Part shown: positions 1 through 36,782 of the stretch, one piece after another
How the letters are laid out: every line of letters begins with the position of its first letter
Position numbering within the stretch: position 1 is the first letter of the stretch
NCBI RefSeq assembly: GCF_964355755.1
Contig: NC_092670.1
Span: 24,476,795 to 24,540,794, forward strand
Reading direction: 5' to 3'
Length of the DNA stretch: 64,000 nucleotides
Origin: Antedon mediterranea
Lineage: Eukaryota > Animalia > Echinodermata
Notes under the pieces: generated by a model
What the model was told of the DNA's origin: nothing
Databases searched by the model: none
What the model saw: the letters and a program-made list of their open reading frames with translations, nothing else
Program-made: the position numbers and the translations under genes

Positions 1-75
1 AAATTTTAATAACTGCAGAATATTTTTAATTTTTAATCATTCATTGTTTTAATACAACTTTACTATAAAGTTCAT

Positions 76-683
76 CTACATGGTCATAAACATTATGACT
101 ACAGTATATGGTTGAGCTATTGTTATAAAAACTACATGGTCATAAACTTGACTACAGTATATGGTTGAGCTACTGTTATAAAAACTACACGGTCATAAAC
201 ATTATGACTACAGTATATGGTTGAGCTATTGTTATATAAACTACATGGTCATAAACTTTATGACTACAGTATATGGTTGAGCTATTGTTATATAAACTAC
301 ATGGTCATAAACTTTATGACTACAGTATATGGTTGAGCTATTGTTATACAAACTACATGGTCATAAACATTATGACTACAGTATATGGTTGAGCTATTGT
401 TATATAAACTACATGGTCATAAACTTTATGACTACAGTATATGGTTGAGCTATTGTTATATAAACTACATGGTCATAAACTTTATGACTACAGTATATTG
501 TTGAGCTACTGTTATACAAACTACATGGTCATAAACTTTATGACTACAGTATATTGTTGAGCTACTGTTATACAAACTAGATGGTCATAAACTTTATGAC
601 TACAGTATATGGTTGAGCTATTGTTATATAAACTACATGGTCATAAACTTGACTACAGTATATGGTTGAGCTACTGTTATATA
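76..683. repeat. Tandem array of ~11 x 56-bp units, each carrying the palindrome GTCATAAA-C-TTTATGAC; candidate subterminal repeat
   Basis: Unit CTACATGGTCATAAACTTTATGACTACAGTATATGGTTGAGCTATTGTTATATAAA starts at 76, 132, 185, 241, 297, 353, 409, 465, 521, 577, 633. Two units carry a 3-bp deletion. Confidence 0.95.
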
Positions 684-796
684 CAATTATGAAATTGGTT
701 GAAAATTAAATAATTTTTTTTAGATTCATTATACATGTAAAATTCCATTAATGTGCACCCTATTGTGACAACCAGTGAGTTGTAAAACTCCCTGCA

Positions 797-3700
797 TTAA
801 CTTTCATTTAAAAAGTCATCTCTTAATTCTTTTAATTTAACAATAACATTGGTAGGCAATCTACTAGTTGGTGTTAAATTAAATATACTTATCACCTCCT
901 CCTTCGATATTATTTCTCGCCATTCTTGTCCATCTTTTTCACACAGAACAAACCGGGAAGTATACGTTCCAGTGTACCACACTACTTCTACCTCATTGTT
1001 ATTTATGCTGAATATTTTGCCTATCTGAGGCCATTCTGTGGGATATCTCCTTAAAGCTGTTGCTACCATAGCACCAACATCGAGTTGCTGTGGTGGCTTA
1101 CGCTTCGAAAATTTACCAATGTGTACCTAGTAGTGTGGGAGAAAGCATAGAAAAGTCATAATCATTTTTCTTACAACCCTAAAAATATAGAATTTTCGTT
1201 GATGCATTTGCTTGATGCAATTATGAGATCATATATCCCAAATATAAGCACTGCTTTAAACTATGTTGCATTACATGTTTCAAAGATGTAATTTTGAAAA
1301 TCTATAATATCTTTATCATACCGGTCTTATTTCATTTTCATTATCCGAGTCACTAATGTCTGTCTCGTTTCCATCAGATTCCTCCCTCATAGGGCTTGCA
1401 TTGTTGTCATTAAAAATGATGTCATGGAGCAAAAATCCCTGTTCATTTCCTAAAAAAAAAGAGTACGTATTAGTTTTAAAAAGTAAATAATATACATTCA
1501 TACAAAATATCATGATATATTTATGCTGAGGTGTTTGTTGCATAAAAGCTGGGCCAATACATTGCGCACCATGCTAATCAGATGCTGATTGATTGATTTT
1601 ATCTTATGAATTAATCAGGAGGCATGTTTCTCTAGTGTACTCCACTAGATATCGTTCATGTTATTTGATAATTTTAGGTTCTCACATAAAATGATCAGTG
1701 GAAGCATGCATTGGTGAATGTGACCCAACATAGTTGTGTGGAGTAAATAGTTGAATTTTGTTATAGCTGCTGAATCTATACTAAAATCAAAATTCTCTTG
1801 CTAACCAAAAAATATATGTGTAAAATGGTGAAACATCACACATGCAATGTAGTACAGTACATACCTTCTGTGATCTCTTCTATATTATTTAAAAATTCCT
1901 CCCACCAGTCACGTTCTTCTATTCGCAAAAAATTTGCAACAGACGCCAGACTTTTTTTTAACTTTGGTATATCTGCATTACTAAAATCAGGAGTACACAA
2001 CACTGGTATATCAGCAGGGCTTTCCTTGAGCAAATATGGAAGTGTGTCCATTTCTCTTGCACATTCACACCAAGTACAATCCGTTGACCAGTTCTTATAG
2101 GACATGATGCATTTTCCGGTTTGAGCCAAAACAAACTTAAACTGGTGTGGTTTGCTGTGGTAACGTATGTCTTGCATGTATGGTACTAACCAGTTCTTAA
2201 TGTCATGCAGATAGGAAATGATACTTGATGTAATCGGCAACTTTTTGTACGAGTTTTCAACAGCACTTCGAAGATGATCAAGTGTAGATGCTCTATATTT
2301 GTTCAGGTATTTGGCCACACATGAAAATAATTGGTCAATATCCTCGTGAGTGTGACCCACCATTAAAAACCCAATCTTTATCTGAAAGAGTAAAAGAAGT
2401 AATGATTTAAAATTAAAACTTTTCAAAGCAAAATAAAAAAAATACATTTTTAGTATATTTCCATTTTTTCCTCATCTAGTTAGACTAGAATGTTATTGAA
2501 TATTTTATGTCTTAATAGATAATTACCAATAGTAAATTAATTACTGTCCTATTAGGCTGGTGGAAATCACCCAACACAGGGGATATTTTGTGGTGAACGA
2601 GAACAGGGTAAATGAATGATGAACTGGGTTCTTTAAAGTGCACTGTGTATACTGTTTTATTATTTATATATCATTTATAAATGTATAGTCATTTACCTTT
2701 CGAAAAATCTTTAACTCTACAAGAAGAGCACATAGGGCAAAAACAAATCTGTTTTTATTATCCTTTCCGCTATTGTCCAACTGCAGATATAAGACTGGTG
2801 GTAGAGGTTGTATCTCTGACAGCACCGTCAGCATAATGTTGCAGGTTAGGTTTGAGTCATGTGGAAACTGCTTTAGGTCAATGAAGCAGTGCCCATGTCG
2901 CCCATGTACCAGAACACCAGTTACATGTGTGGCTAGTTTCCACATCTTCGACGTTTCTTTTGATTCGCAAGCAAAAGATGGTAAATCAGTCTTGCTTTGG
3001 TCCATTCCATCGATAATTATTGACAAATACTTGTTGGGATTCTGTCTTGCTTTCTGCATATGTTTATAGTACTTTCGACGTTCAATACTGAAAAATTAAA
3101 ATCATATGTTTATAGTTTTATTTTGCATTTAATAATAAATTTTTGTTTTGTTTAGTTATATGTTATCTATTAGCCGATGACAAGATGAGACAATGCTTTA
3201 CTTCTAATCTATTAAAATTATTGATTAAATGTAGAGGTTTTTTGTATAATAATGATTTTGTTTATCTTTTCTCTTTTTTTGTTTACAACCACTTTTATTC
3301 ATTCATTGTTCATACACAATAATTATTTTCATTTTCTACCATTTTTCCCCGTTATTTTCTGTTTTATTTCAATCACTCTTAATTTTATTAAGTTAGAATT
3401 ATTTTTAAAAACACTAATAATACTATAGAGGAGGTATACAGTGGAAGCAATAATTATTTTTCCTATCTATGGTAATACCGGGTATACAAGTTCAACAGAA
3501 TTTCTTGTTGAAAGGTTTAAACTACTGGTTTTGTACACAAAATAGGTAGGCATACTTACTTTTGTTTTCGTAAATGCTTCTCTCTCTTCATCATTAGTAT
3601 TTGCCGTTTTTGCTTTTGATTTGTCTTGTGCAGCTCAAATTTTATTCTGGTGCATTTGCTGCATTTTGCAAAACGATTTTCCTATTAAAAAAAATTGAAA

Positions 3701-6700
3701 AAATACAGCACGTAAAAATATAAAATTAAACAAATTTTGCATTCAATATAGTGAATGTAGGGAAGGAGTTGTGAGGCCCATCATAAATGCATCTGGATTG
3801 TACAGTATGTTTTTCCAGTATTTTATTATGAATGAAAATTGAACCTACAGGACTTTCTGCATAACATTGAAGTGAATTTATAAAAATAAGTTAAAAAATA
3901 CTTCAGTCAATGAAGATGACATGGATTTTGTCCATTGGTACAAACCATAATAAGTGTAAAAACGTAAACATACCTCAGGTATTACAATATGCTTGAATTC
4001 AACACACCAAAACTTGTAGAATGTCGCTAATGCACACACATCTTCATTTCTTAGCTCAAACTCATCTTTCATATGCATGTACACATCATGTTTGGTAAGC
4101 GTTGATGGTAGATGGATTTGTCCATTAGTTGGCATTTGATCACCGTATTCATTACAAAATTTAATAAACCAAGCCCGACACTGTTGAGTTGAATTGCTAT
4201 ATACCATCTTTCTGGTGAAGTTGGGTGGTAAAAGATAACAGCATCCTTCTGAAAAGAAATAAAATGTAAATTTCAAATATTAGGAATTTCAAATACTGTA
4301 CTATTTTATTATTGTTTGGTTTAATCCATTGATTAATGACTTATGATCATTTTGCATTATCTTTCTAACATAGTGTTAAGCATATTAATTTTATTGTGTA
4401 AAAATAATTAAACAATAATCAAATGCATTCTATTCATTTAAAAAAAAGTTATTCTCCACTCCTCGTCAGATCCTGCCTATGTCCCTGTATAATACGACTA
4501 TAAGTATAATGGAAAGTAATCTTCACACAGTCACAGTAATCTTTCCGTTTCAGCAACATTAAAACACATACATTAAAAGTAATATTAACAGCATGTAAAA
4601 TTAAATAATGTAAAATGTACTGTAAAACTAAACAATTAATTACCAATAGCTTGCTTCCTTATTTTGTAAAAAGTTGACCGGCCAATACCATTTACTAACA
4701 TCCATGCTTTTGCACAAACTTTGTTAGCACCAACTAGTAGACAGATTTTGGTGGCACCTCCGGATGTGCTGAGATGTTCATTGAAATATTTAAGGATCCA
4801 ACAGCGTTGTTCATATTCGGTCATTGCTTGAAATGCTTCCCTTGTCTGTTTTATTTCTCTAAAATTTAGCATACCAATGCACATTAATGCACAACAGCAG
4901 GTCAAATACAAGTTGTGTATTGGCTGTAGGTGATTCCTTTTCCTTTTTTCTACAGAAAGAATAAACTTACATTATCCATTGGCAAAAAAAACAAACAAAC
5001 AAAATAACAATTATATGGTACCAATTGCGGAAAATGTGATCAGTCAATACGGTTTCAGAAGTTTTGGAGGTTACGTAAAACTAGGTGACTAATTCGCATT
5101 AATATATAGATACTTTTAATTCTTTGACAAACAATTTTTTTTTCGGTTCAGATAATTCAATTTCAATTTTCGAGTGTTCAATTACAGGTTGCATGGATGT
5201 CACCAGCTTTTTGGAGTGCCGGTCGGCAAATTTTCGGGGGGGGAGGGGGGGTAACCCCGGGCATCCCCCCCCCCCCCCGGGGTTTGTCGTTATTTCAGCG
5301 AAACATAAAGAATTATGAAAATAAATAACAACAAATTGCGTCAGGTCTAGGCCTAACCTTGTACCACCGGGGAGTCGCCGTTATTATTCGAGAAAACAAA
5401 AAAACGCTCACGAAATGAATAGCAATAGATCGCGTCAGGCTTAGGACTAGCCTTGTAGACACTACGACCACTAGGCCTAGCCAAGGCTTAGATAGATGCC
5501 CCCAAAACCCTAAATCTGAATTCCACAAAAACGGACCCTTCTTTATTTAGGCCTAATCCCTAATCAAATAATGTAGATAAATTATTAGCCTAGACCTTAC
5601 TACTTGTTGCTCAATATAATGTTCGTGTTCTTTTGCGCGAGAGTTTTTTAGCGTATTCGCGAATTTTTTGTTTCACAACTGTGCGGCTAGCATGTATGTG
5701 TAGTGCATGGCCGGCAAGAACAGAGACACGTGTTTATGGGTTAACTGAAGTTCAGCAACCTGAAGTTATCCCAGGGACGTGTAATTGTACCATGCTCGGC
5801 GATCATAAACGAACGAACTTGCCCGGTCTCACTGAACCATGCGCATGTTTTTTTATTTTTTTTAATAGTTCGTAGAGTACAAAAATGTAAAACTAGTAAC
5901 ATAATATAATTAAAGCAGGGTGACAAAACATTCAGCAATTAAAAATGATTTTGTTTGGGTCTATGTAGTTGTACATTTTTAATTACTGCGTACTTGTTTG
6001 TATTTTTAATCTGTGCAAAATAAAACGCTTGAATGGTCGCTATGTGAACTTTAAACTTGTACACTGTGCTGTGTAGAGCACGTTGTTCGCCATGACTCAC
6101 AAGCTGTAACAATGAATACCAGGGCAGGGTAGGCCTGGTATTGTGTTACAAATAAAGTAACGTACGTAACCACGGAAACATTTGCTGTAGTCTTTTGTCT
6201 TATCTATATGAGGCTAGCTTGTCTGTTATTAACGATGTGCTAGGTAAAATGTTTTAGTACGAATTTTAGTTAGGCATAGGCCTAATATAAATATCGTAAT
6301 GATTAATAAATAATAGTGGTGGTCGGCAGCCTGTAAATCCTGGTCGGAAATGTTGAGTGCTGGTCGGGGCCGACCAGCGCCGACCAGCGTGGTGACATCC
6401 CTGAGGTTGTGCAGGTGCCTTGTTCATTGGACAGTCCTACCTATTTACATACCATACAGACATAACATTAGAACCTGACCATAGAATCAGACACAAATGG
6501 AAACAACCAGCAATTTCCATATCTTTTAGGTACAGCACAACCATCAACATCAAGCACTATTTAATAAAAGTAGTTTTAAAAATTAATGACATATCAAACT
6601 TACCACTACGCTTACTTGTGTGATTAGAGATTTTAATCTCATCATCACTTGATCCAGATGAATTAAGGTAATTAGTTTCTACAGTCTCTAGGCCTCCTGT

Positions 6701-7067
6701 ATTTCTCTTGCAGGCTAAATAAAAATATAGTAGTTTAATATTTATAGCAGCCTATGCAACATACATGTACAGTAATTCTTCATTTGGGGTAACTGGTGAT
6801 TGATAGCAGACATTTTCAAATTTTGGATAGTGGAAGATAATATTTTGATCCAGGAGCTATAGGCTTTATGGGAGGTTATTACCATTTATCCTTTTTTTTT
6901 CACCATTATTCTCATCGTTATTAATAATGAGGTTTTTGTTGTATTTTGTTATTTCTGAAGAATGCACCTTTGTAATTATTAAGTATGCTAATGATTTAAA
7001 GGTGTAGTAGGGAAGTAAATCTAAATAAATAAACTAGCCTCTATAGAGGATACTAATATCTACTGGC

Positions 7068-7108
<41 letters not shown>

Positions 7109-9235
7109 TTATTAGGCTGGCTGCTTAAAAGGTAATTCCCTACCCAAGCCTAGATGAAGTTTTGTATAAAGTTGGTAGGAGCCCTACTAAGAAAGGTTAG
7201 CAAAAGATCATGGTTAATGTTATTGCTACTGACCTGCTGATATGTCATCATCGGAAGTATCGACATCGGAAGTATCGACATCTGTTGTAGAAACCTCCCA
7301 TGCTTTTCTCTCTGCTGCTGGAGGGACTTTGGTAGTTGTTACTAGACAAACAGAGTCTATGTTGTAATCAGAAAATGTGCAATTTAAACTATTATCATAG
7401 AAATAATTAGATACATTTATTGTTTAAAAGGGACTGCTAATTTCAATTTTTTATTTTATGATTCCAGATCAATTATTTATTTTACATATCAAAATAATTT
7501 CTTTTTTTTCCAGTAAAAAACCCTTGCCAAGGGGACATTATTTTGTTCCTGAAGCCTTAATAGGGGTTATACTGAACGTAACTAGAGGTGGTCCAGTGAA
7601 ATAGAAAACGTTAACAATGCAAACTTCTTTGTTAAGAACAATCTCAACGCACACAATTGTGTTATAAGTACGGAAAGGTAAATCAACAAAAAAAAAACTA
7701 TACTCAACGATAAATGTCCCAATCGAATACGACATTGCTACCTCCCAGATCGGGCCCATAAAAACATAGGGATAGGCCTAGAGGCGGCCTCTACTCTAAC
7801 CTAGTAAATAACTACATAACATGTCATTGTATTGTTAAAGTTACTGACCTGCTGACTCTGTCGGTATGTCATCATCAGAAGTATCGACATCTGTTGTAGA
7901 AACCTCCCATGCTTTTCTCTTTGCTGCTGGAGGAACTTCGGTAGTCGAAATCCCAGTAGGTGACCCTTCTGTATCATCAACAGCAGAACATCCATTATTG
8001 ATTGATTGAATTGAACCGTTCCCACGTACAATTAGGCCTACTTCATCATCTTCACTTGAAGAATAGTAAAGCATACGCTCAGTTGGATAAGCAGTGCTGT
8101 GTGTTGTTGTACTTGACAAACAGATTCTGTATCGTAATCAGAAAATTTGCAATTTGATTAAATTATTATCATACATAATTAATTAGATATTAAATCAAGA
8201 ATGATTCCACCAAAATTTTGAGTTAAAATAACGATAGTGAAGCATATGAATAGGCAAACTGCCTAAAAATTGACATGTTTTTAGAAACTATTCTCATCTT
8301 CCACCAGAACAGAAAACAACGCCTAGGCTTAGAGTACTTATATACCAATAGGACAGGGTGTATGTAAATGAGGAAGTAATTAGCATGATAAAACAACAAG
8401 GAATGTAGGCAACAAACAATCATATGGCAAGCGTGACGCCTATTCATCAAATGCCTCACTATCGTTATTTTAAATAATTAATTATATGCCACACATCGTA
8501 AAACATTATTGAAAATGTGTATGTTTGATCTCTTCTTTGGGACACCCTTTCCCACAAACAAGTGGATATAGGCCTATTAAGGGGGCCGGCACACATTTTG
8601 AGTGTAGGCCTACCTGGCAAATGGTTGATTACCCCTATTAAGTTTTTTCTATCCCAAACACAGTACAGTACTACATACTAAAATTCCCATATGAATAGGC
8701 CTAGGCTAGAGCCTATCTCTAGCTAGGCTTAGTAATAAGTAATATTTACTAGGCCCAGGCCTAGTACTAGGCCTAGTAGTAGTAAATAACTAGGCCTCTA
8801 GGCCTACCTAGGTATGAACATTCAATTCATTGTTGTAGGCTAGCCGCTAGGCCTATTGTATTGTTACTCACCTGCTGCTGCTGACTCTGTCTGTAGGCCT
8901 ATGTCATCATCAGAAGTATCGAAATATGTTGAAGAAACCTCCCATGCTTTTCTCTTTGCTGCTGGAAGAACTTCGGTAGTCGGAAGAACTTCGGTAGTCG
9001 AAATCCCAGTAGGCGACCCTTCTGTATCATCTACTCCTAGGACTAGGCCTAGGCCTAGGCCTTCTTCATCGTCTTCACTTGAAGAATAGTATAGCATACG
9101 CTCAGCAGTTGGAACAGGGTGTTCTGTCGTGCCATCATCAGAAAATGTGATATTCATAATGTTATTATCGTAGAAATATGCATCGTCTTCGCTTGAGTAT
9201 TGAAGCATTAGCTCAGAGTCGCTTATCATGTTCAT
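797..9235 (-). CDS. Multi-exon Sola1/DUF7869-like DD(D/E) transposase-like protein (~843 aa)
   Basis: Phase-consistent GT-AG exons 9235-8872, 6714-6616, 4949-4644, 4248-3974, 3681-3560, 3087-2697, 2381-1865, 1449-1322, 1126-797 join without stops. Motifs: CCC..C..VCAKAW, RFAKCSKC, SIIIDGMDQSKT, LYLQLDNSGKDNKN, FLMVGHTHEDIDQLFS, and a C-terminal PQIGKI..EVEVVWYTGTY domain. The two 5'-most exons are less certain. Confidence 0.85.
5192..6403. mobile_element. Non-autonomous hAT-like element in a transposase intron
   Basis: Terminal inverted repeats CATGGATGTCACCA / TGGTGACATCCCTG, flanked on both sides by AGGTTG (partial TSD). CGACCAG subterminal repeats; no coding capacity. Confidence 0.6.
7067..7108. 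repeat. (TAG)n microsatellite
   Basis: About 13 perfect TAG units. Confidence 0.95.
7233..9180 (-). repeat. Three diverged tandem copies of an acidic exon-like module (..PAAKRKAWEVS..DTSDDDI..SAG|GT)
   Basis: Copies at ~7233-7400, ~7848-8180 and 8872-9180 share sequence and each ends in a phase-1 donor CAG|GT(C/G)AGT. Confidence 0.85.
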
Positions 9236-9389
9236 GATTTAACAAATTGATAAAAGAAATGAACAATATACGGTTTTATGTTCATTTAACCGTCATTCGC
9301 ATCTAATCTTTGGAAAAAGCGCGAACGAATTTGATTGGCTGCTGATCAACGTTATATTTCATGTGACGTCGTCAACGTCCAATGCAATT

Positions 9390-9637: not shown

Positions 9638-10619
9638 TTACAATACTGTACTTTATTCATTTTAAAACAAACTGAAATTGTCCACTTTTCCATTACTGAA
9701 ACTGATTTAGGATCAACCTGAGTTTTCGGCATGTATTGAATATAGGACTATTCCATTATTATTTATAGGGGTGTTAGTCAATATGTTGGGTTGGGTGTGC
9801 CAGGCTTGATGAGGCTTCTATTGTTCGTGTCATTGTGCCAATTGTTTTGTATTTCACTGTGTTTGATAAAAACAAACAAAAAACTGCTGCTATAGTTAGC
9901 CTATGTGTCTGTAAATTATATCGTATTTTACACTATATTTATATAGCCTATAGGCCCTAACATGTTTTTTACCGTCAACAGTTAAATCATATCATGTTTT
10001 ATTTTACATTTCATGTAATATTATTATATGTTTTTTTTTCTCAACAGCCGAATCAAGTTATATAGCCTCTTACAAATAACAAGAAAAAATACATTCAAAC
10101 GTTATTCACAATAAGGAGAAAACATATACAACTTATTTAATTTATGTTTTAATTTATATAAATCCAAAGGAAAATTAATGAAACAACGACAATGATGTGG
10201 GTATCAGTGGCTGGATCTCAATAGAGATACAAAAAAAAAAGCGAAAAGCTAAATCAAAACGATAAAGTAAAACAGCCAGAAAAACAATTTATATAAATAC
10301 ATCCATGTTTGTTTTTTTCTCAACAGTTTATGACTTTAACAAATTCAGTACACTTAAAGGCATAAGATTAAGCAAAACATACATTGTGTAACATATTTAA
10401 TTTAAGGTATATATGTTTTATTTCATCGACCCAGTTTTAAGTGTTATTTAGTAGTGTCATGTTTGGTTCAACTCAATGAGTTAGCAATGTTCGTGAGGTT
10501 CTCTCTCCAGCTGATCCTGACACAAAAACTAAAATAGTCAGAAATAAAATTGCAGAACTTTCTCTCATGCAACACACACTAACCCTTCCCCGGACCCCAG
10601 TACAGGATATATAGGGCCT

Positions 10620-11130
10620 ACACTGTTAAAAAAATTCTTATAAAAAAACTGTAAATTACTGGCAATCTGAACGCCAGTAATTTACCGTAATGTAGAATTA
10701 CAGGTACTGTTGAAAATAAATTACTATAAAACTACAGTAAATTACTGTTGGTCATAAAGTCGGTTGTCTACCGTAATGTAGAATCACAGGTACTGTTGAA
10801 AATAAATTACTGTAAAACTACAAATTACTGTTAACTTGAAAGTCGGATGTCAACTATAACGTAAAATCACAGGTACCGTTTCTAATAAATTACTACAGTA
10901 TAATTACTGTTAATCTGAAAGTCTGTTTGTCAACAATAACGTAAAATCACGGGTACCATAAAACTACGTAAAATTACTGTCGATTTCAAAGGAAGTGGTC
11001 TACCATTAATGTAGAATAATGTTGATAAATAACTGTAAAACTACATTAAAATTACTGTCGATTTCAATGGTCAATGGTAATGTAAAATCACAGGTACCGT
11101 TATTAATAAATTACTGTAAAAGATTCAGTG
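10620..11130. repeat. Degenerate AAATTACTG-rich tandem repeat starting CACTGTTAAAA (second copy 12030-12540)
   Basis: Recurrent AAATTACTGT / AAATCACAGGTAC / GTAATGTAGAAT units at a ~60-80 bp period. Confidence 0.75.
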
Positions 11131-11600
11131 AATTCCAACCAAATAAAATATTACAAAAATATAAGTACCATACAAACAAAATAAATACATGCCAATAATC
11201 TTATTTCATGCCTTATATTAAAATGACCATCACATAAATGGAAGGTTTATTCCAGAGTACAGGACCTGGATGTGGTAGATGGACACTTAACAATGAGAAT
11301 TATATCGTCGGCCAAGAATGAGTCTTTTTATCAATAAAAAATATTAATCTCTTTCTCTTTGAAATCTTTTGTAAGTTCATTTATATATAATATTAACAGA
11401 ATTAGAAAGAGAGAGACAGCCTTTGTGGGTTTAAAAAAATGGATAATTTTCAATATAAATCCAAATTACTGAAAAAAAGACAATGTTGTGGTTATCAGTG
11501 TGGCTGTGGGTATCAGTGGCTTGATCTTAATAAAGATACAAAATAATATAAATAAAAAGCTAAATCTAAACGATACAATTTAAACAACTAGACAAAATTA

Positions 11601-11655
11601 GCAGAGCTTTCGGGCAAAACTAGCCCTTCATCAGTGTGTAGAAATCAAGCGCTGC
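11601..11655 (-). ncRNA. Hammerhead ribozyme-like motif of a Penelope-like element remnant
   Basis: Minus strand reads GCAGCGCTT..ACA-CTGATGA-AGGGC-TAGTTTT-GCCC-GAAA-GCTCTGC: both catalytic boxes, stem II and a near-perfect stem III. Confidence 0.65.
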
Positions 11656-12659
11656 CTGAGTGGACTGGAATAAAAGAAATAAAACAAAAGAGGCATAATG
11701 CTGGTGAAAAGAGTGAGATTAGAAAACAATAAAGATAGCTTGGTATATATAAACAATTTAGAAATTGAATTAAAAATCAACTCAAATGGTGGTTAATATT
11801 GAAACATTAAATTTAGGTAGTCGATGGAATAATTTTACCGATCTGGGAATATGTTCCTAATGTTAAGTCAAAATATTTCGTGGTTTTAAGTAGTAATTCC
11901 AAGTGGTTTTCATGGTTCTCTCTCCAGCTGATCCTGACACAAAAACTAAAATAGTCAGAAATAAAATTGCAGAACTTTCTCTCATGCAACACACACTAAC
12001 CCTTCCCCAGTACAGGATATATAGGGCCTACACTGTTAAAAAAATTCTTATAAAAAAACTGTAAATTACTGGCAATCTGGACGCCAGTAATTTACCGTAA
12101 TGTAGAATTACAGGTACTGTTGAAAATAAATTACTGTAAAACTACAGTAAATTACTGTTGGTCATAAAGTCGGTTGTCTACCGTAATGTAGAATCACAGG
12201 TATTGTTGAAAATAAATTACTGTAAAACTACAAATTACTGTTAACTTGAAAGTCGGATGTCAACTATAACGTAAAATCACAGGTACCGTTTCTAATAAAT
12301 TACTACAGTATAATTACTGTTAATCTGAAAGTCTGTTTGTCAACAATAACGTAAAATCACGGGTACCATAAAACTACGTAAAATTACTGTCGATTTCAAA
12401 GGAAGTGGTCTACCATTAATGTAGAATAATGTTGATAAATAACTGTAAAACTACATTAAAATTACTGTCGATTTCAATGGTCAATGGTAATGTAAAATCA
12501 CAGGTACCGTTATTAATAAATTACTGTAAAAGATTCAGTGAATTCCAACCAAACAAAATATTACAAAAATATAAATACCATACAAACAAAATAAATACAT
12601 GCCAATAATCTTATTTCATGCCTTATATTAAAATGACCATCAAATAAATGGAAGGTTTA

Positions 12660-12867
12660 TTCCAGAGTACAGGACCTGGATGTGGTAGATGGACACTTAA
12701 CAGTAAACCACAGTAAGAATGTTGTTGATCCAATAACAGGAGTCCACACTCAAAACATAGAATCCTACTGGAATCGTGAAAAATTAAAGTTAAAAAGAAT
12801 AGGTGTAAACGGGAATGGTTACCGGAATACCTTGACGAATTTATGTGGCGAGAAAGATATGGCATAA
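12660..12867 (+). pseudogene. Merlin/ISXO2-like transposase C-terminal fragment
   Basis: HLTVNHSKNVVDPITGVHTQNIESYW followed, after a frameshift, by YLDEFMWRERY, the typical ISXO2-family C-terminal signature. Confidence 0.85.
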
Positions 12868-14913
12868 TATAAATTAAACAGATTAAGTAAGTTAAAATAG
12901 TATATGTTCCTTGTGCCTTATTAAATAATGTTAAAGTCTTGTGCCTTATATTTGAATAAAGTTTGAAGAATGTATCTTTCGATCTAACGATTATTTTCTT
13001 GTTGTTTGTAGAGGCTATTTGCAACTGTTGAGAAAAAAACCAAACATGGATGTATTTATATAAATTAAAACATAAATTGGATATTTTATATAAATTAAAT
13101 CTTTTTCTTGATCTTTTCTTGTTATTTGTAGAGGCTACTTGATTTAACTGTTGAGTAAAAAAACATGTTAGGGCTTATAGGCTACTGTATATAGTGTAAA
13201 ATACGATATAATTTACAGACACATAATAAAAGCTATAGGCTAACTACAGCAGTAGTTTTTTGTTTGTTTTTATCAAACACAGTGAAATACAAAACAATTG
13301 GCACAATGACACGAACAATAGAAGCCTCAACAAGCCTGGCACACCCAGCCCAACATATTGACTAACACCCCTATAAATAATAATGGAATAGTCCTATATT
13401 CAAATACATGCCGAAAACTCGGGTTGATCCCTGATTCAACCTAAAGCCATAGAAATGTAAACTAAAATATGCGTAGTGCATGAATATAGAGTAACAGTAA
13501 CATTTCTAGTTTTTAATCTTTCTCAGTTTACTTTTAATAATGCTTTGTTTTTTTACGTTTTGTTTTATATTTGAAGATATCAAATTTGTCAGTGGTTTGT
13601 CATGACAAATTATACTTTTTAAATATTTTTTTAAATGGTTTTTATGTATATTTTTTTTAAAATATAATTATGTTTATTTACTCTTGTTGCACATCTCCCT
13701 CATTGAGACTGTGCCTCTGATAAAGAGATACAAAAAAATTCATAACATAATTAACTGTACGCCACATTAAATCTTTAAAAAAAAGTTTATATAAACTTTA
13801 GATTCTATCATCAAAACACTTCCCCTATTATGATCAAATCATCTTTCATGTAAACTTGGCCTATTTTTCAGAAATGAATATCCTTATAGTAATACGATGA
13901 GTGGTAAGTTCAGAGCTTGGGATTTTTTTAGGAAACAATGAGTTTGAAAGAATCCCAATTTGATTGGTCAAAATTATCGCTACTTATACGTCCGCTATAG
14001 ATGGCGCTTTTTTTCATACAGATAACTACATAAACAGAACACAATTGTTAAAGAATAATTAATAATATTAAAGAACCAATTCTTTTAATTATTCCTTGTC
14101 TAAAAATTGTCCCCATGTATGGCAAGATATTCCTAATTTTATCGTACTTCATCTTTAATTGTCTGTACACACGAACCATGTTATCTGTATATTTAAATGA
14201 TTGTTCACACAATTTATTATATCTTATGTATTTTTATTGTTTTACTAAGTTTTATGATTGAAATGCAGTATAGATAACCAATTCGATAGTGCTTAGCACT
14301 CAAGAAAGGAAATCCCCAGGTTGCTTTTTTGCGTTGTTTGACTGCATGAAAATTTAATAAAATAATTCTGTTCGATCCTTTTCCTTCATCTATATGGCTT
14401 GTGTTTTTGTAATTTCTGTGTGCATGCTATACATGTTGGCTTCGTCTATGAATTTGTTACCGATTGGCTATTTCCTTTGATTGTTAATGCGTTGGTGGTT
14501 GGTTACAATCAGGCCTGCATATTATTTTTCAAAATTATAACATTTTAAATTTTGTTGTAAATTGATGCTTTCAATAATGATTGTAGATCATTTTCACTAT
14601 TTCCAATGAGAATTATATCGTCGGCCAAGAATGAGTCTTTTTATCAATAAAAAATATTAATCTCTTTCTCTTTGAAATCTTTTGTAAGTTCATTTATATA
14701 TAATATTAACAGAATTAGAGAGAGAGAGACAACCTTTGTGGGTTGAAAAAAATGGATAATTTTCAATATAAATCCAAATTACTGAAAAAAAGACAATGTT
14801 GTGGGTATCAGTGTGGCTGTGGGTATCAGTGGCTTGATCTTAATAAAGATACAAAATAATATAAACAAAAAGCTAAATCTAAACGATACAATTTAAACAA
14901 CTATACAAAATTA

Positions 14914-15849: not shown

Positions 15850-16945
15850 ACGTTAGTAAATCAGGAAAGGTATGGATGATTTGTATAATGATATTGTTTG
15901 TGCTCTATCTAGTGCCTCCAAAATGTGTTTTAAAAATAAGAAAATAAAAAATGGGACCCACATTCCAGGGTGGAATGAAAATGTCGCAGAATGCCATAAT
16001 GTGGCTAGAGAATCATTCCTTCTATGGGTTAATAATGGAAAGCCTAAATATGGTTCATTATTTGAGGCGATGCATTTTAAATGACAAGATCTCAATATAA
16101 AATGAGTTTACGCTAGTGTAAATCAGAAGAAGAACAGCATAGGGCTGATTCTATGGTTAAGTTTTTATTAAAAAATGATTATGCTGATTTGTGGAAAAGG
16201 TTTATAAGTCTAAATCATGTACTCCTGTTCTTACTTCTTCTTTCTTGGAAATTTAAGAAATACTTACAGAATCTTTGGATAATGTTAATGGTGAATATGA
16301 TAATTATAAGTAACCACTGGGCAGCTCATTTTGAGGAGCTGTTTAATTGTGTTCATAATGATAGTAATAAGGATTATGTTCACAGTATACTTGTTAATTG
16401 TAATGATGATTGTGGTTGTGAGGTAAATGTCCAACAGGTAGCGGGCATTATTAAAGATTTATCTAGTGATAAATTGTTCCGATTTTAAAATCTAAATCAG
16501 GTGATATTACGAGTAAAAGCAATTAGGCCTATAGCTTTAGCGGGTGTGGTATCTAAGGTACTAGAATTTGTATTAATTAAATTGTCCGGAGATAGTCTTA
16601 AGTCATCTGACCATCAGTTTGCGTTTAAATCGGGTCACTCCACAGATACATGTATATTAGTCTTAAAACAAGTTGTTGCATTTTATAGTCGGCAAAATAG
16701 CCCTGTATATGCTTGCTTTCTTGATGCCTCTAAGGCATATGACAGATTAAATAACTGGACTCTTTTTTAAAAATTGTTAAACAGAAAGATGCCAACCGCA
16801 ATTGTAAAATTGTTATCGTGTTGGTACTCACAGCAACAGTTTTGTATTAAATGGGGAAGATCTATCTCCCGATGGTTCTATGTAAGAAACGGAGTGCGAC
16901 AGGGTGGAATCATGTATCCGTTACTGTATAATGTTTACATTTCCC
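15850..16945 (+). mobile_element. Decayed non-LTR retrotransposon RT fragment (RTE-X-like, clade uncertain)
   Basis: IPGWNE..ARESFLLW..GKP, RPIAL..SKVLE, QFAFK.GHST, CFLDASKAYDR, NGVRQGGI; broken by stops and frameshifts. Confidence 0.85.
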
Positions 16946-19534
16946 AAGAACCAGTGGGAATATTAAAAGAAAGCCGATCACGTTTACTAACATCTTTTAA
17001 ACGGAGTTTTGGACGACGATATCAAATGCCTGTTGCCACTGAATTGGACTGTGACTTTCATATCTTGTTTTTACGTGATATTAGGATTTATTGCTAAAAA
17101 TCATATACAGTATAACCAAAGTTAAATATAAACTATGAAATATGAGTCTATAAAACATTTTAACTAACGCTTGAACTTTTTTTAAATTAATGTGATTGTA
17201 AATAGGGGCCTACCTGATTTGTATTAAAATGTTTCTATAATTATCAATTATTCCTTATATTCATCTGAATATAAAACAAAAGTCTACTTCCGAATTGGCA
17301 GGGTCGGAGTCACTATAATGTAATTAGCTACCCCATTTGGACGGAAAATAATAATAATAATAACGTTCAAATTACTAATATAATGTTCAGATACTTTAGT
17401 CTAATACCACCTCAGCCCGACCATGGGTTTGGTTAGAGCATTTTTTAGGAATATGGACATAGCTTAGATTGCTAGCAATTTCACTATTAACTCTTGATAA
17501 TATCACAGATAAGTTTAAAGTTTTAAAAAACCGCTGATTATAGTTTCAAGCAATAAATAGATAGGACTGGACATGCCCTCTAGAGTAAAACTAGGTAAAA
17601 CTATAGGAATCCATCCCAAAAACGTATTGGATTTGTTTCCGTTTAAAAAACTTTTCATTTACAATAATTTTTAGTTCATACATTAAATGCCAAGGAAAAC
17701 TAAATTTAGCAATATTATTTGTTTAGGGGTGCAAATAAAAGTGAAAACTATAGACAAGATGTAAAGTAGTCTAATGTACCGTTTCTTCGATAATCTTAAT
17801 TTTACCTAAATACCTATACTTTTATTCAGACATTCCGGATTTTTAATCCTCTAAAAAATAATGTTAGCTAAAAGTAAGAGTGCATTGCCTGGTCTATATT
17901 CCTGAAAAAAGTTTTGTCGTCTCTCGATTTTATGATGCTGTGTCCGATTCTATAAATACGTTTTATATTAACACTGGCAGTATTTATCTATATTAACGAA
18001 CACATCCCTTTTTACTTTCCGTACTTTTGAACCTTCTGAACATAGTCTGGTTATACTGAGATTGTTTATCTAATTGAATTCGTATCATATATTACGTAAT
18101 ATTAGGATATATTGCTAAAAATCAAGAAGTAAATAATTGTTCGGGTTGAGTGCTATAGGATAGAATTACAGTTATGAAAAATGTAACGAACAATACACTT
18201 TAGAAGTTGTTTGAATCCCATCTAGTCTACACGCTTTAAACTATTTTAATTTGATCGTAAATACCTATATTCGTGTCATTGATATTACACGATTGCGACA
18301 TGAATTTTCATCAAAGTATCATACATTAAAAGTTATGCTGGTGATTGTAAATGAAAGCTCTTTTAAATGGCAACCATATACCATACGTTTCTTATAGACC
18401 TAATCCGTTAGAAAATTAAAATACTTTTAAAACTTTTAATTTGCATCTCCTATTTAGGCATCAAAACTTATTGTCTGTTGTCCCTTAGATGAAAACCAGG
18501 CAATCTAGCACCAAAATAATTTCGTAATTATATACTGTAGGCCTAGTGTATATATTAATATAAATCACTCGAATAATGACAATACAAGTTATTGCCTATT
18601 CCCTATCGAAGTTAAAAGTTCTTCTGTATGACTAAGATACAGTCACTAAAGGCAATATTGTATGTATGTTACCTATTAAATACAAGCCCGTACTTCATCA
18701 TTCAACATAATTAATAATTTCGCCATGCAAACTTCGAAGTGTTTTTTTGTATACTTTACTAAGTACTTTCCATGTATTTTAAATAGTCAATTAAGCTAAG
18801 AATATAGAGCACCGTGTTTTTATAGGTTCAGCTTTTAAATGTGTCTCGTTGTGTGCTTTGCATCTGTTTAAAAAAAAATCGTCACATTTGTCTTAGCTTT
18901 CGGAGTCAAAAATCTCGAATGACTTTTATGTCGGTCGAACAAATTTATTATGATGAACTCGTATGTTGATTCTCTCTCTCGGACAACATCTTTATAAAAC
19001 TGGCTAATCGTATCTCAGCGGTATCAGGTCGGCTGTCTTCGTTTTGCTTCTAGATATCGCATTAAGCTATTAGTAGGCCTACCTGACATAACCGAGCTAT
19101 CAAAAAGCGAACTTCAATAACAGAGGTGACTTATTTGTCCCAAATTTAGTTGAGAATGTTTTAAGGCCTAAACGAATTATTATTACAAAATTTAGTGGGC
19201 CTATATTATAAAGTGATTGGTTTAATGAAATTAATAACAAAGACTCGAATTAAAAAGTACAGTATAATTAATCATGCACGTGTAAAACAAATTATTATAT
19301 TAGCCTATATTTTAATGCCAACACTTTTCCAATACGTGCTTAAATTGGCTTTGCTTGTTGCTTCATAGAAAATCATAACCAATTAATTGTCTAACCAAAA
19401 ATGTCATTTATCTCATACACTGTAATATTTGTAGTGAGTGGTAAAAACCAAAACACTCTCCGTATGAGAATGACACAGAGATCAGCTATAAAAAACATTA
19501 AAGTTTTTCTGTAACCGAAATGTTAATTCAACCT

Positions 19535-21875: not shown

Positions 21876-23518
21876 CCATAATATTAATAATAATAATTTA
21901 TTTGGAGATTACACTTTTACAACAGTGGCACTCGACCAAATGGAAGGTGCATCCATATATTATCCTAATTAAATACGATTTAATGTGGCTTTACTTTTAT
22001 ATATTATAATAATATTTTATAATTATTCATTTTAACGGCACTTTGATAAAACAATGTTATATATCATACTATTGCACCTTTATTCATGGGGTGACCTACT
22101 ATAACCTTACACTATTATGGAAAAAAAGAAAAAAAAACCAAATAAGAATTGTGAAAGTTAACCCAATGTATCACAGGTGTGACTTGGCTACACAATTGAA
22201 AAATTCATTATATAATAATATCATGTGCATGCAAAAACAAAATTGTATTATTAAATGTGCATATCATTTATTTGTCCAATATAATTTTATATATTAGTTT
22301 AATTTATTTTTCTAACGCCTAGTTTGACAGGCCAACTTTGAAATTGAAATAATCTTTTCGTTCGACACAATATTTCAGAGATACGTGAACATTTGATGAT
22401 GGTCTATCCGATATGACTTTGTTTTTTTGTACATAAAAAGTGGACAATTTTGGTTTAGATCAATGAATGCTTAAAATTGTTTTTTTTTTGTGCTATATTT
22501 TTCAAGTTGATATCTGGAATACTATCAACGCTTTTATCTTATAATACGCGATATATTCATATTTTTTTACAAGAAAATAAAGTATTGATCACTAGCTTGT
22601 TTTTATGTATTTAATAACTATTCTAAGTTCATTTTAAATAGGCGTATGTTTATATTTTAATGATTCATGGTAAACAATTATAAACAGCTTCAATATTACA
22701 CAGTAGGTTATTCAAAAGAGACGCACAATTTATACGGACGTGTTTTTAACGACAAAATTGACCAATCAAAATGGAAATAGTCAAAATACAATAATTTTAT
22801 GTTCATTGGCTACCCCACCAACAACCTAAACTTCAAATAATAAAAGATCCCTGTAATACTGTATTTAAAAAAAAGCATATTTGCAACCGAAATTTCTTAT
22901 TTTATAAATATAATATAAATTTACAATTATACAAAACAATATACAACTGCTTATAAAAAAGGAATTTAATTCAAGAATTTTAATTTAGTTAAAATATCAG
23001 GATTTCTTACTTCAATTTGATGTTTCCTTTAGAGGCGCTAAACTTTTGAATATATGATTTATTTATTTTTTGGTCATATGTTTTTTATATCATGTTATTA
23101 TGTTATGTGCAAATAAAGTATTTACATAGTTGATATATATATATATATATTATGCAGTGTAGCATAGGTGAAATTACGGGAGCCCAATATGAATTAGTTT
23201 GAAATGGTAAAAATTATTTTACTACAGTATAAGTAGATTAAAATATATAAGTTAATCTATGAAAATGATTATATATTACTGGCAGATTTTATCGATCTCT
23301 ATCGTGCAAATAATACTCGTTATCGATATGAAATACGATTTGCACTTGAGTTTTTCTTCCTGCTGATCTGTAGCTTTAGTATAAACAATGTGAACAATGC
23401 CCAAACAGGGAGTTGACTAATAACTCCCTGGCCCAAATAAAAGATCGTAACAGTGTGAAAGTGCGTCACTCGTCACCCAACATTGTTTGTGATCACTTCG
23501 TTATCGCATTTGATAAAA

Positions 23519-26500
23519 ATGGACTGGAGGTTTTGTGTAGAGGAAGACAACATTGCTTATCTAATAATTAATAACACTAGGGCAATAAAGCATTCTGATG
23601 GTGAAAAGTTAGGCAAGGTTATAAAATTTACCAAAACAACTAAAGGCAAAAACTGGCTTAAGGTAAGATTGTTGTGTTCTTCTAAATAATATAATTTTCT
23701 TTTAATGTTTTTAGGGAACCATTCTTCACCAGTCTTATTACTTTATAAAGATGTTTTATTTTCCATTTTGCAGTTTTAAAAAGTGTTTCAAGCCACGCAA
23801 TTATTAGTTTTATCAGTATTTTCCCAGGGGCACAATCTTCAGCTGTTTAATAGGCCTATTATATTTGGATTTTATAGGCTTTCTGATTATAATATATATT
23901 ATGATTTATTCGATTATTTATTTCATCTAATTAATTGAAATGTTGTTTCAGGCCTAAAACTAAATTGTAATATATCTTTACTATAGGACCATTGATACTA
24001 ATTTTGTTGACCATTTTTTTAACATTAAAGTTTTATATATGATTTAAAAAATGCATTTTCATCAAGAGCACCAACACTGAATATTAGGGTGTAGTGTGTA
24101 GACTTAACAACTATATAAATTTCTATGTTTAGTTATTTATTTAATTAAAAACAAATTTGCAATACTATAGATTGTTACAGAAGAAAGCGACTGTAGTAGT
24201 ACGCTTGCTGCAACCAAAGTATTGTGGAGCAAATTCAAACCGGACGAAAATTGCCCATTTTGCAAATGCAAGACAATTGACGACCTTACCAAAACATTGC
24301 AAACATTACGAAAGCGAAAAGCTCAAGATGCTGAAAACGTAACTACAAAGAGAACAAGAATTAACATAAAGACAATCGACGAAACAATCAAAGAAAAGAT
24401 CATTGGTTAGTATATGAAACAATTGTTATTGAAGTTACATACTGTACCATGCCCCATGGACAAGAATAATTATTATCTGCTTTTGTTTTACTGTAGTTTA
24501 CAATTAAACAAACGTTACTGTTTTATATTTTTTCAAATGTTTTGTTGAATATGTCACATAATAGTTATTCACTTTGATCTTGGATAACAAAAACTGTAAT
24601 TTTAAACATAACTCACAATAACTATAGGCCTAATCATGATTAGATTTAATGTATCTACAATTCGTTACGTTAAATTAGTATAATCTGGCTAGATAAGTAA
24701 TTATACGTACTAGGCCTATTAAAATATAAAGCGGATGAACACATTTTTCGAAGATGAACGAACTACAGATATTTTGAACACAGGTTTTAACTTCTTATAG
24801 TTACTCTATTTTCTATTTGTTTTATTGTTATTTAAGTTTCAAACAGTTATTATAAAACGCATAAATAGATTCCGGTCATTCGATTGGACAATTTTCTTTC
24901 ACATGACTACTACTAGCCTTGCAAACCCAGACCTAGCCCGGATGCTAACATACACTAGGCCTAACCTTCCTAGATATTGTGCAAAATACCTATATAAATT
25001 CAAAATTAACTAAAATATAAAAAAATAACATGTGCAGGGTGATCTCCATGCACTCAAGCAGGCAGGGGGTGATGATGTCCTGACACTACCTAGGCCTAGA
25101 CTAAACGGCCTATACTGTATGGCAACGTTAAATTTTTAGGATATATATTGTTATTTAAAAAATAAAACTAATATTAAAATATAATGTCAATCATTTTTTG
25201 TAATTCATATAATTTAATAATGTATCCTTTTTCTGAAAATGTCCAACTTTGTATGTAAAACAATTTTTTAAAATGTTTTTTACTGATGTCGCAACTTGCA
25301 ATTACTGTGGAATTCCCCATTTTAGTAAAAAATAAAATTGGTTTTTAAATATGAAAATCCTATCATAATAATAATACAATGACATATTTATATTAAGTTG
25401 TTTCATATTTGAATTGTGAAATACAGGTAAATGATTTCACTAAATTGTAGTAGTAGGCTGACATTATTAGTCACCGACACCCAGATTAGCCAGGACATAA
25501 GATTACTACGATGCTTGATCTAAATCCTGGGGAGAATACTTCCTTGTTGTATAATCATAAGATGTAATATTTAACAAACTGTCATTTTACGTTTATAGGT
25601 CTAGTTGCTGTGCCAAGAAGTTCGATAGTAGCGCCGCCATCGGACTTACTACTTCGCAAGATCGACCAAGATTTTGTTTTAAAAATTCAAGAAACGCTTA
25701 CAAAGGACGGTCTGGTGAACACGATACTACCTGTATTGCTTAATAAAGAACATTACGATTTCTTTAACAAACAAGAATACGAGAAGTGTATTTTTTATTC
25801 ACTTGGCGGAAATCATTTAAGAACAGCACTGTCAACAATGAGTGAGAATATATTTAAACAATTAGAAGTGGCAGTCTATTTTGATCTAACAAAAACTGAA
25901 TCACTACGTGTGGCATCTCGACATAATTTCGTCACAGGTAATACTCACAAAGCAACTTTTGAAGACAACGTTGCAGTATGCCGTAACATTTTGCAAGATT
26001 ACAATGACAAAGATGCCAAAACGGCTTCGACATGGAGGAGAAAGTGTGCAGAGGCAATTGGCAAACAATCGTTCGAAAAAAAGGTATTATTAATATTATT
26101 TAAACATGTTATTTAGGACTCTAATATATAAAGTTGTAATTAATAATGTAATGGTGATATAATTAATAATAATGTTGTAATTCACTGAACTGCTAATTAA
26201 GCAACTAGTGACAAGGCATAGCAGAGAAGGTCACTTAGTTGTAAATTGCCTAGGATGGAATGGTAAATAATACATTTATACCATAACTCATAATAATCAT
26301 TCATTGATGTTAACCAAAAACATACCGCGTGACAATTGGGCATGTCGCTAGCTAAAATCCAATCAAATGGGAAAAATTCTTGTTCTTTGAGTCATTACTA
26401 TTGTCGTTTGTACAAACGACATTAATGAACTAACAAAATAATTTAATATTCAATTGAAATCTATTTTATTGTTATTATAATTACAGTGTTCAAGGAAATA

Positions 26501-27149
26501 ATTTTGCAACGGCGCAATTGTATAACCTTGCTCGAGAATGATGGGGAATCTGAATTAAGATCCAGATTAGTTCGTTTCAAAGAAGAAATTGAAAACAGCA
26601 TTCAGCTTGAAAATGGAGCCCAATCGGATGGTAAGTTTAAGTTAAATTAACTTTATTGTTTATCTATTGTCATGGATGCTAATACGAAGAACAATATACA
26701 AGCGATATTGTATACATTCAATTCGCAATACAATGCTGATGATTTGATGTTTGTAGTGCAATATACTGCTACTTTTTGTTCAGGAATTTTAAAACGGCAT
26801 ATTAAGCTGTATTCTCATAACTTGGACGGCATACTATGCTATCTGTATTGTAAACTTGTATAAACACAGCCCATGCATTTAATTTTTAATGAATATTCAT
26901 AATACCCATAATCAATTTCTGACCCAATTTGAAACATATAATAATACAAATTTAAAAAAAAAGATTCTCTATTTTAAAATTTTGTTTACACAGAGCTTCT
27001 AAAAAAATTATACAACTATTTAGAGGTCTATTAAATAATAGGGCCTTGGTTTATTCATCATTTCAGATGAGGACGACAGTACAGATGAGGAGGTTGAAGA
27101 TAATGCGGAGATGGCAAATGAGGAGGACGACTACACATTTCCGGGGTGA
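23519..27149 (+). CDS. Multi-exon ParB/Srx-like domain protein, probably internally deleted, with a possible DNA amino-methyltransferase C-terminal remnant
   Basis: Exons 23519-23662, 24171-24405 and 25599-26083 splice in phase and contain LLLRKIDQDFV..ILPVLL..YSLGGNHLRTAL (ParB-like GG.HR box). Exons 26487-26630 (RRNCITLLEND..LRSRL) and 27067-27149 (acidic tail, TGA) splice to each other but are out of phase with exon 3. Confidence 0.7.
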
Positions 27150-27287
27150 AAATAGCATTCATGATACTGGACACATGCCTTGCAGTCACATTTTATATAA
27201 CTTTTCAAATTAATTTATTAAATTTATTCTGTGCCTTGTGATGTTTATATATATACTGTATATACAATTGAGAGACTAGTACTGTTC

Positions 27288-27365
27288 CGCCGTACTACGA
27301 CAGTGGTCTAATGGTCATCTGCATATCAAGCAGAATGTTCCGGGTTCGGATCTTGGATTGGGCAT
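27288..27365 (+). mobile_element. Degenerate tRNA-derived SINE head
   Basis: AGTGGTCTAATGG A-box-like and GGTTCGGATC B-box-like motifs; related fragment on the - strand at ~60300-60340. Confidence 0.45.
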
Positions 27366-27732
27366 TCTCACTGATTTCCTCATATTTATCGTTTAAAATT
27401 AAATAATTAAATTTCACTGGGCGGTTTAGAATTATTCTGTGCCTGTGAAATGTATATATCTTTTAAATATTTTCTACTACAATCACGTATAAATAGTTAG
27501 TAATGCATATAATACTTATTTTACTAGAAGCCGAGTTTAATTCATTCTAAATTAATAACCAGTGTTAGTGAATAAATAGTTAAAATTTATCAGTTCTTTA
27601 ATTCTTTGATGTACGGCTGAGAAAAAACACCTTATGAGTGTATTCATGTTTTGTCATTAATAAAAAGCTTGTATAGCACACTAAAACTTTGTCTACTAAT
27701 TATTTTTACAGAGAAATTCTTGTATTTCTGAA

Positions 27733-28128
27733 GTCATAAATTTTATGACCTAATGGCAGCTTCACAATCATGTCATAAATATTATGACTTATGTGAAAAT
27801 AGTCAATACCTTGAAGCCCGGAAATCACAGCCTCATGTACTATAACCAGTGTATTCCGAGACATAACATGTAGTTTTAAATTGTCATAAATTTTATGACC
27901 TAATGACTGCTAAATTAATGTCATAAATATTATGACTTATGTGAAAATAGTCAATACTGTACCAGGAAGCCCCGAAATTAGTGCTTCCTGTACTATACAC
28001 TATAACTAGCGTATTCCGAGACTTAACATGTACCTTTAAATTGTCATAAATGTTATGACCTAATGACTGCTAAATTAATGTCATAAATATTATGACTTAT
28101 GTGAAAATAGTCAATAGGCAGCTACCAT
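27733..28128. repeat. Tandem array (150-160 bp period) with six GTCATAAA-T-(T/A/G)TTATGAC palindromes, ending at GGCAGCTACCAT; candidate right end of the large element
   Basis: Palindromes start at 27733, 27772, 27883, 27920, 28043, 28080. Confidence 0.9.
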
Positions 28129-36600: not shown

Positions 36601-36782
36601 TTTATTATTTGATTTATTAGACTCAATAGATGCCTAGCTAGACTACTAGTACTAGTAGGCCTAGATTATATAAATAAATAATAGTAAACACTGTAAGTGT
36701 AATTTAATTAATAAAATACAGCTTTCATTTGCCTTACTTTTATGTCATCATATAATATTATAATTATATATACAACCAGACA

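Follow-up and report, generated by a model that had tools for sequence, protein, structure and literature searches.

Giant DNA transposons with a ParB-like gene beside the transposase gene are known from algae. According to PMC12477816, Sola1-1_Ec32 of Ectocarpus spans 21.5 kb, carries a ParB-methylase gene on the opposite strand and has 282-bp terminal inverted repeats (TIR) and a 4-bp target site duplication (TSD). Plavaka (EnSpm) elements of Bostrychia have inverted-repeat arrays beside ParB-like genes, and self-binding is proposed for them in 10.1101/2025.02.11.637652. In two further papers, the target duplication of Sola1 elements is given as 4-bp AWWT (PMC3845634) and algal and fungal ParB helix-turn-helix methylases are described (PMC4738411). 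Here we analyzed a window of 64,000 nt from the feather star Antedon mediterranea (NC_092670.1:24,476,795-24,540,794, forward strand; all coordinates below are positions in this window). Its left part holds a DUF7869 transposase-like gene and a ParB-like accessory gene flanked by two arrays of one palindrome. We put at roughly 0.6 the probability that this region is one copy of a young, dispersed, multi-copy, two-gene unit, likely a large Sola1-type cut-and-paste DNA transposon, in which the DUF7869 protein is the predicted end-cutter and a dimer of the ParB-like protein is the likely binder of the palindrome arrays and would help to hold the distant ends together.

The unit resembles Sola1-1_Ec32 in its giant size, its apparent Sola1 transposase, its opposite-strand accessory gene with a ParB-like domain and the nested insertions typical of such giants (PMC12477816). 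This type of cargo is not new, since it is already present in the Ectocarpus element. The feather-star unit differs in residing in an animal and in coding for an accessory protein without methylase motifs. It also has palindrome arrays beyond both stop codons, while the word palindrome does not occur in the main text of PMC12477816; the 282-bp TIR and 4-bp TSD have no verified counterpart in the feather star, the two elements being compared by description and not by sequence. Bostrychia Plavaka elements with PAG1-3 likewise have a ParB-like accessory gene adjoined by tandem inverted-repeat arrays, but they have a transposase of another superfamily, ParB fused to a 2-oxoglutarate oxygenase, methylase-SET as a separate gene and three accessory genes in all (10.1101/2025.02.11.637652). 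Among the papers listed we found no animal case of the Sola1 plus ParB-like design in print, with subscription journals and Repbase lying outside the search, and no papers on DUF7869.

Two-protein CACTA (TnpA/TnpD) and Harbinger elements also combine their transposase with another protein, which binds DNA, and with subterminal repeat arrays. The feather-star unit differs from them in its unrelated transposase and accessory folds and in its head-to-head genes. Bacterial ParB-parS and KorB-operator systems share with it a ParB/Srx domain followed by a KorB/Spo0J-like helical domain, as well as clustered palindromic sites. Unlike these, the feather-star module sits within a eukaryotic transposon, no ParA was seen, and its GGNHLRTA motif lacks the arginine found after the histidine in sulfiredoxin, as do most of 60 aligned relatives. 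An arginine-patch nucleotide motif is a feature of the ParB CTPase clamp; it is absent from the window protein, which has GGNHLRTA.

A transposase-like gene and a ParB-like gene

The core of the DUF7869 transposase-like gene occupies 797-4949 on the minus strand in seven exons (4949-4644, 4248-3974, 3681-3560, 3087-2697, 2381-1865, 1449-1322 and 1126-797). It comprises 688 codons and six GT-AG introns, its sole stop codon is terminal and its frame is intact. Further 5' exons of this gene, acidic and in part duplicated, probably lie at 6604-9235 on this strand (about 9235-8872, 8111-7849, near 7.3 kb and 6714-6604, with putative splicing), and an acidic exon is present in three related copies at 7215-9105 in this 5' part. 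PF25273 (DUF7869) matches two exons of the gene with E values of 4e-36 and 6.5e-33. The structures of this gene and its partner are established, and the original prediction of two divergent, intron-containing genes is confirmed, with stop codons 114 bp and 584 bp from their respective arrays.

The folds of both proteins are predictions. A structure model of the sister protein P0045 (37 sequences, predicted local distance difference test [pLDDT] 81) has a predicted winged helix at residues 74-150, an RNase H core at 191-370 and a chromo/Tudor/PWWP-like tail. Residues 191-370 of the model align with simian immunodeficiency virus integrase (Z 8.0, root-mean-square deviation [rmsd] 4.5, 139 aligned) and with Mos1 (Z 7.5, rmsd 3.3, 159 aligned), and the top Foldseek rows for the model are TnsB, IstA and MuA at E 0.002-0.02, none under 0.001. 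Near-invariant residues in the protein alignment are D216 (33/33), D294 (35/36) and GHTHED-D (37/37). In the model the aspartates are placed on core strands and the last helix, consistent with an RNase H-fold transposase with a DDD triad as in Sola1 elements. We take D216, D294 and GHTHED-D to be Sola1-type motifs. These motifs and the analogy to the Ectocarpus element (PMC12477816) suggest the Sola1 label for the DUF7869 protein. A sequence search against solved structures gave no match for a single exon or for the DUF7869 profile.

The ParB-like accessory gene lies on the plus strand at 23519-27149, with exons at about 23519-23662, 24171-24405, 25599-26083 (ParB/Srx domain), 26187-26261, 26486-26629 and 27066-27149; the first of these was placed by its frame and its likeness to the N-termini of relatives. 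As a correction to the gene first predicted, the window copy is internally deleted, with the junction at about 26174-26186 (plus strand), where residues 143-416 of the crinoid protein P0005 are missing. The deletion removes about 274 codons, comprising the larger part of the helical DNA-binding-like domain and the region that follows. In run X3 a contig stops at 26173, and the missing exon can be read from 205 loose letters ahead of 26187; the gap in coverage at 25604-26037 in run X1 is uninformative. Two GT-AG spliced joints in the 3' exons of the gene were seen in run X5 and are missing from three other runs; no run is recorded as RNA, and X5 is RNA by guess only. These joints therefore make it likely that some accessory copy is transcribed.

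A profile of the accessory family matches sulfiredoxin (E 0.005), and the corresponding domain of the Anneissia orthologue compares with ParB_N models at template modeling scores of 0.62-0.64. The model of the crinoid protein P0005, in which residues 1-43 are foreign, aligns with KorB, Spo0J and ParB-parS structures at Z 5.2-6.0 (KorB-operator Z 5.9, rmsd 3.9, 109 aligned; ParB-parS Z 5.2), all under 8, and Foldseek places ParB first at E 0.026. These models suggest that the right gene codes for a ParB/Srx domain followed by a KorB-like helical domain, the kind of ParB-like domain carried by elements of the Sola1-1_Ec32 type.

The methylase part is a different matter. PF01555 (methylase) lies above its cut-off in five of 28 accessory relatives, and no N4/N6 methyltransferase catalytic or S-adenosylmethionine motifs occur in the C-terminal part of P0005. 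The methylase score of the crinoid tail is equalled by 41 of 1000 shuffles, and its profile match is 0.1% alone and 36% for the clade. Region 331-412 is poorly modelled (pLDDT<50), with beta-class methylases in Foldseek at E about 1, and no methylase is among 50 structure-match rows for the crinoid model, in which the methylase part was barely probed. The crinoid tail is a decayed methylase remnant at most. What had been proposed as a ParB-like(-methylase) gene thus retains its ParB-like domain, but nothing supports a methylase in the crinoid protein; distant relatives do have one.

A dispersed unit with palindrome arrays

Near-identical copies are present on several Antedon mediterranea chromosomes. 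Nine left-gene proteins of this species are 98.8-100% identical to the window and are spread over seven distinguishable contigs. P0046 agrees with the window at 370/370 residues, including two seen in no other member spanning them; because it is probably the protein of the window copy itself, it was not counted as an independent copy. The left gene is also present on all four listed contigs carrying the right gene, and two contigs list the left gene only. P0005 and P0010 fuse window 2836-2964 (antisense of a transposase exon) directly to 25793, in window orientation and across a gap of 22.8 kb. The join lacks GT-AG and is best read as a copy elsewhere from which 22.8 kb was deleted, known from its protein and not its DNA. 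XP_071941517/518 are a near-consecutive left/right gene pair in which each gene is reduced to its 3' end, and another near-consecutive pair is XP_071944308/311-312; we take such XP_ accessions to reflect gene order. The keeping of both 3' ends in the first pair resembles deletion derivatives of transposons. Because of the fused protein at another locus and the consecutive accessions at two loci, we conclude that the two genes travel together, the accessory gene being opposite in strand to the transposase gene inside the same unit, as in elements of the Sola1-1_Ec32 type. This joint travel and the multi-copy state are established.

Both arrays are likewise plainly observed. The left array (76-683) consists of 11 units of 56 bp with nine full 7-3-7 palindromes and two shortened by 3 bp; the right array (27733-28116) has three units of 150-160 bp, and every unit holds two palindromes at a spacing of 37-39 bp (a tandem-repeat call gave a unit of ~160 bp in 2.5 copies). 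The palindrome pattern first predicted occurs at 15 sites, nine in the left and six in the right array, and nowhere else in the 64 kb, compared with a mean of 0.33 expected by chance; none of 100 shuffles reached 15. All 15 sites are perfect copies of GTCATAA-N3-TTATGAC, an invariant 7-3-7 core of 17 bp. No full palindrome lies between the two genes, the arrays being located beyond both stop codons, and outside the palindrome the two arms have only scattered 10-mers in common. Apart from these 10-mers, the palindrome is the sole shared word of both arrays, as had been claimed with 11 left and six right copies; the right count stands, but the left array has nine full copies and two shortened ones.

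Contig depth across 23158-28879 is 1167-1765 in X3 (881 at 25377-26173) and 43-54 in X1, while from 29388 on the flank has 265-308 in X3 (seven contigs) and 6.3-9.9 in X1 (six contigs). Set against these same flank contigs, the element contigs stand at 1538-1700 in X3 and 48.5-52 in X1. This difference of about 5-6-fold is a rough contig figure and not a copy number, and X1 and X3 come from one sample; the right arm is also present in runs X6 and X8, from a second organism. As expected of Sola1 DNA transposons, the near-identical copies are dispersed and the unit borders sharply on unique flank. The original prediction placed the right terminus at 28128, and this placement fails: one element-depth contig runs unbroken from 28087 to 28640 across that position, in two runs of one sample, and multi-copy depth persists to 28879 or later, extending the right arm over 28117-28879. 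Letters 28117-28130 are similar to the spacer in the first unit of the right array. Because the terminus is not at 28128, the letters predicted for the left end are unsupported as well. The left end itself lies outside the window, as had been proposed, and no inverted match beyond 10-mers was found between 1-760 and 27600-30700.

The depth step and a contig joint suggest that the right terminus lies within 28880-29532. This interval includes a 5'-truncated fragment resembling a long interspersed nuclear element (LINE) at 28978-29444 (plus strand), with a 6-bp duplication (28972-28977 and 29445-29450). Contigs skipping this fragment (joint 28970>29444) have depths of 35.5 in X1, 57 in X6 and 730 in X3, and the unit may therefore run slightly past 29444; alternatively, these contigs could be another repeat. 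Our guess for the terminus is 29532, followed by ATAT, which fits AWWT; there are two other candidate ends. We consider transposition chemistry with TIR and TSD probable for the unit. Of the single mobile element first proposed, a young and dispersed unit in multiple copies remains, which includes both genes and the right array and combines a predicted DDD-type transposase with a ParB-like accessory gene. The terminus at 28128 and a functional methylase in the crinoid lineage are unsupported.

Some 14 kb of it (9.7-23 kb) contains nested and duplicated repeats, and for this reason the core of the unit may by our estimate be nearer 15-17 kb. A nested element at 9710-13430 has inverted ends of about 290 bp (91%), 83-bp repeats and an 800-bp duplication, and contains a weak IS1595/Merlin-like fragment (12637-12864, E 0.016). 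Between the genes there is also a decayed LINE reverse-transcriptase fragment at 15860-16950 on the plus strand (RVT_1 E 3e-6 at 16489-16767). An insertion resembling a miniature inverted-repeat transposable element is found in an intron of the transposase gene (5192-6403), with 14-bp inverted ends (13/14 match) and a 6-bp flanking duplication. An RNA or virus reading of the region was considered and found no support; an Rfam scan of 1-31000 gave 0 matches.

The rest of the window has features of its own. A rhodopsin-family receptor gene at 30719-32200 on the minus strand (7tm_1 E 5e-7), whose frames look shifted, is outside the element because it has flank-level depth. At 35900-38300 the contig depth is very high and all four runs have long matching contigs, which marks a high-copy repeat of a few kb. 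Tandem chitinase-like genes in a roughly 8-kb duplication occupy 43400-60300 on the minus strand (Glyco_hydro_18 E 2.5e-8 for one exon), and a perfect 269-bp inverted repeat flanks a 52-bp tandem array at 54954-55674.

Related loci in other lineages

Close relatives of the right protein are nine A. mediterranea proteins on four distinguishable contigs and one Anneissia protein. Word-based searches gave crinoid matches only (2/797 and 2/5310 candidates), and a profile search returned 361 cluster representatives. Ten of these clusters were looked up; they include sea urchins, with several copies spread over different chromosomes, as well as a sea anemone, a sea cucumber and an acorn worm. In an Atlas feature search with residues 110-290 of P0001, the orthologue of window 25599-26083, a fungal DUF3723 cluster ranked third (score 0.95, 173/256 shared). 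We take DUF3723 to be a Starship accessory gene; no paper linking it with ParB was found.

Among metagenome loci, we analyzed the best 80 of 566 DUF7869 matches (median locus 3.2 kb; 12 with >2.5 kb upstream). A ParB-only profile matched four of the 80 at E<0.01, in three families and always upstream on the opposite strand; the best E of a reversed control was 0.64. Two of the four, L024 and L031, are one family, in which the accessory frames (L024:711-4283 and L031:3-1151, both minus strand) are head to head with DUF7869 and have an OTU protease and a ParB-like domain, with DPPW near the end. Five of the 80 loci have a repeated palindrome of their own, each different (0/240 shuffles). L033, L049, L051 and L080 are studded with 4-11 such sites each, and L052 is the only locus with both a ParB-like frame and a repeated palindrome, its sites being found downstream of the accessory gene, in the space between the two genes and inside the transposase gene. 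A methylase-SET gene is found upstream of the DUF7869 gene in L065 (2360-5746, plus strand), and a SET-like frame (L052:3-824) and a DPPY-bearing frame (L020:1-564), both on the minus strand, are also beside DUF7869 genes. These three frames resemble the PAG2 gene of red-algal Plavaka elements.

Head-to-head linkage of DUF7869 and ParB-like genes, put forward as a test in other invertebrates, was seen in metagenome contigs (4/80) but not in the sampled invertebrate accessions. Viral contigs gave 13 pattern matches and no DUF7869 relative; the ParB-like alignment has no stretch conserved enough for pattern scanning of such contigs. In 60 loci the feather-star palindrome occurs as single sites and never as an array.

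Possible roles of the ParB-like protein

The DUF7869 protein would excise and insert the element via its inverted ends, while a dimer of the ParB-like protein would read the 7-3-7 sites and act as a scaffold bringing the distant ends together. TnpA pairs distant ends in CACTA elements and serves as our model for such a scaffold. The window copy, with its accessory gene deleted, would need protein from another copy. The ParB-like protein is probably the binder of the palindrome arrays; that end-bridging, over gene regulation or self-marking, is its main job is a tentative proposal with somewhat less than even chances. The crinoid accessory protein looks like a DNA-binding scaffold with its enzyme motifs lost. 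We favour a scaffold over self-marking or repression because each array sits past a stop codon, none being placed between the gene starts, and because the crinoid protein no longer has the methylase motifs or the arginine that follows the motif histidine.

Several findings weigh against the proposed two-gene transposon with end-bridging protein. No TIR or TSD was seen, with the left end outside the window, and the depth step is a rough, one-sample figure. Fold scores are middling, with Foldseek E>0.001 for both protein models; a designed protein heads the structure-match list of P0005 (Z 6.4), and no Pfam ParB match was obtained in 28 accessory relatives. The winged helix predicted in the transposase would be an alternative DNA binder. 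Two of the L052 sites lie between the gene starts and fit regulation as well as bridging. Only one of the five palindrome-bearing metagenome loci has a ParB-like gene (at a median locus of 3.2 kb), and three of the four ParB-bearing loci are without an array of three or more copies. No adjacent left/right accessions were found among 10+10 invertebrate clusters, a thin sample that includes Lytechinus pictus and Ptychodera with both genes.

One alternative is that the ParB-like protein binds the arrays but acts on chromatin or transcription without pairing ends, either marking or shielding the element (ancestrally by N4/N6 methylation) or repressing genes as KorB does. Such a role has been put forward in print for algae (10.1101/2025.02.11.637652 and PMC12477816). 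It would suit the five of 28 relatives with PF01555, the KorB-operator fold match, the L052 sites between gene starts, the methylase-SET gene of L065 and the chromo/Tudor/PWWP-like tail of the transposase model. In the crinoid protein, however, the C-terminus is without both methylase motifs and scores no better than 41 of 1000 shuffles (0.1% alone, 36% for the clade), and the window has no full palindrome between the genes; we regard this alternative as rather unlikely.

The transposase could also bind the subterminal palindromes itself, as in many cut-and-paste elements, leaving the ParB-like gene as a passenger. The predicted winged helix, the broken accessory gene of the window copy and the four of five palindrome-bearing metagenome loci without a ParB-like gene on the contig agree with this, but these contigs are too short to prove absence of the gene, and head-to-head pairing recurs in three unrelated families. 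In Plavaka elements, arrays accompany the ParB-like gene together with another transposase (10.1101/2025.02.11.637652), and a passenger role appears improbable. Chance juxtaposition of two separate mobile or duplicated pieces, or a segmental duplication, would be compatible with the two contigs listing the left gene only, with the lack of visible termini and with the 14 kb of unrelated repeats between the genes, which may be peculiar to the window copy. This explanation is largely refuted by the fused protein at another locus, the consecutive accessions, the same palindrome at both arms and a depth step that excludes the flanking receptor gene, and we consider it very improbable.

A broader and more speculative idea, in our view doubtful, is that a captured ParB-parS-like module serves giant eukaryotic transposons, also in animals. 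Composed of a dimeric reader and a family-specific palindrome array per arm, it would pair ends that lie tens of kilobases from each other or tether the element after excision. The module would have been exchanged between Sola1 and Plavaka elements and, should the DUF3723 likeness be real, Starship elements as well, and it would be what lets giant elements grow so large. An end-pairing factor would matter for transposon tools with large cargo.

For the DUF7869 family, these results suggest a likely function as a DDD transposase. The crinoid family separates two proposed accessory jobs, DNA binding and methylation: its methylase motifs are gone while the ParB-like domain, the helical domain and the arrays persist, which points to DNA binding as the conserved job. 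With its defined 17-bp site, its intact transposase and sister copies that are nearly identical, the family makes the role of ParB-like transposon proteins directly testable. The feather-star unit would extend to animals, in the form of a young family, a transposon design described in 2025 in brown and red algae.

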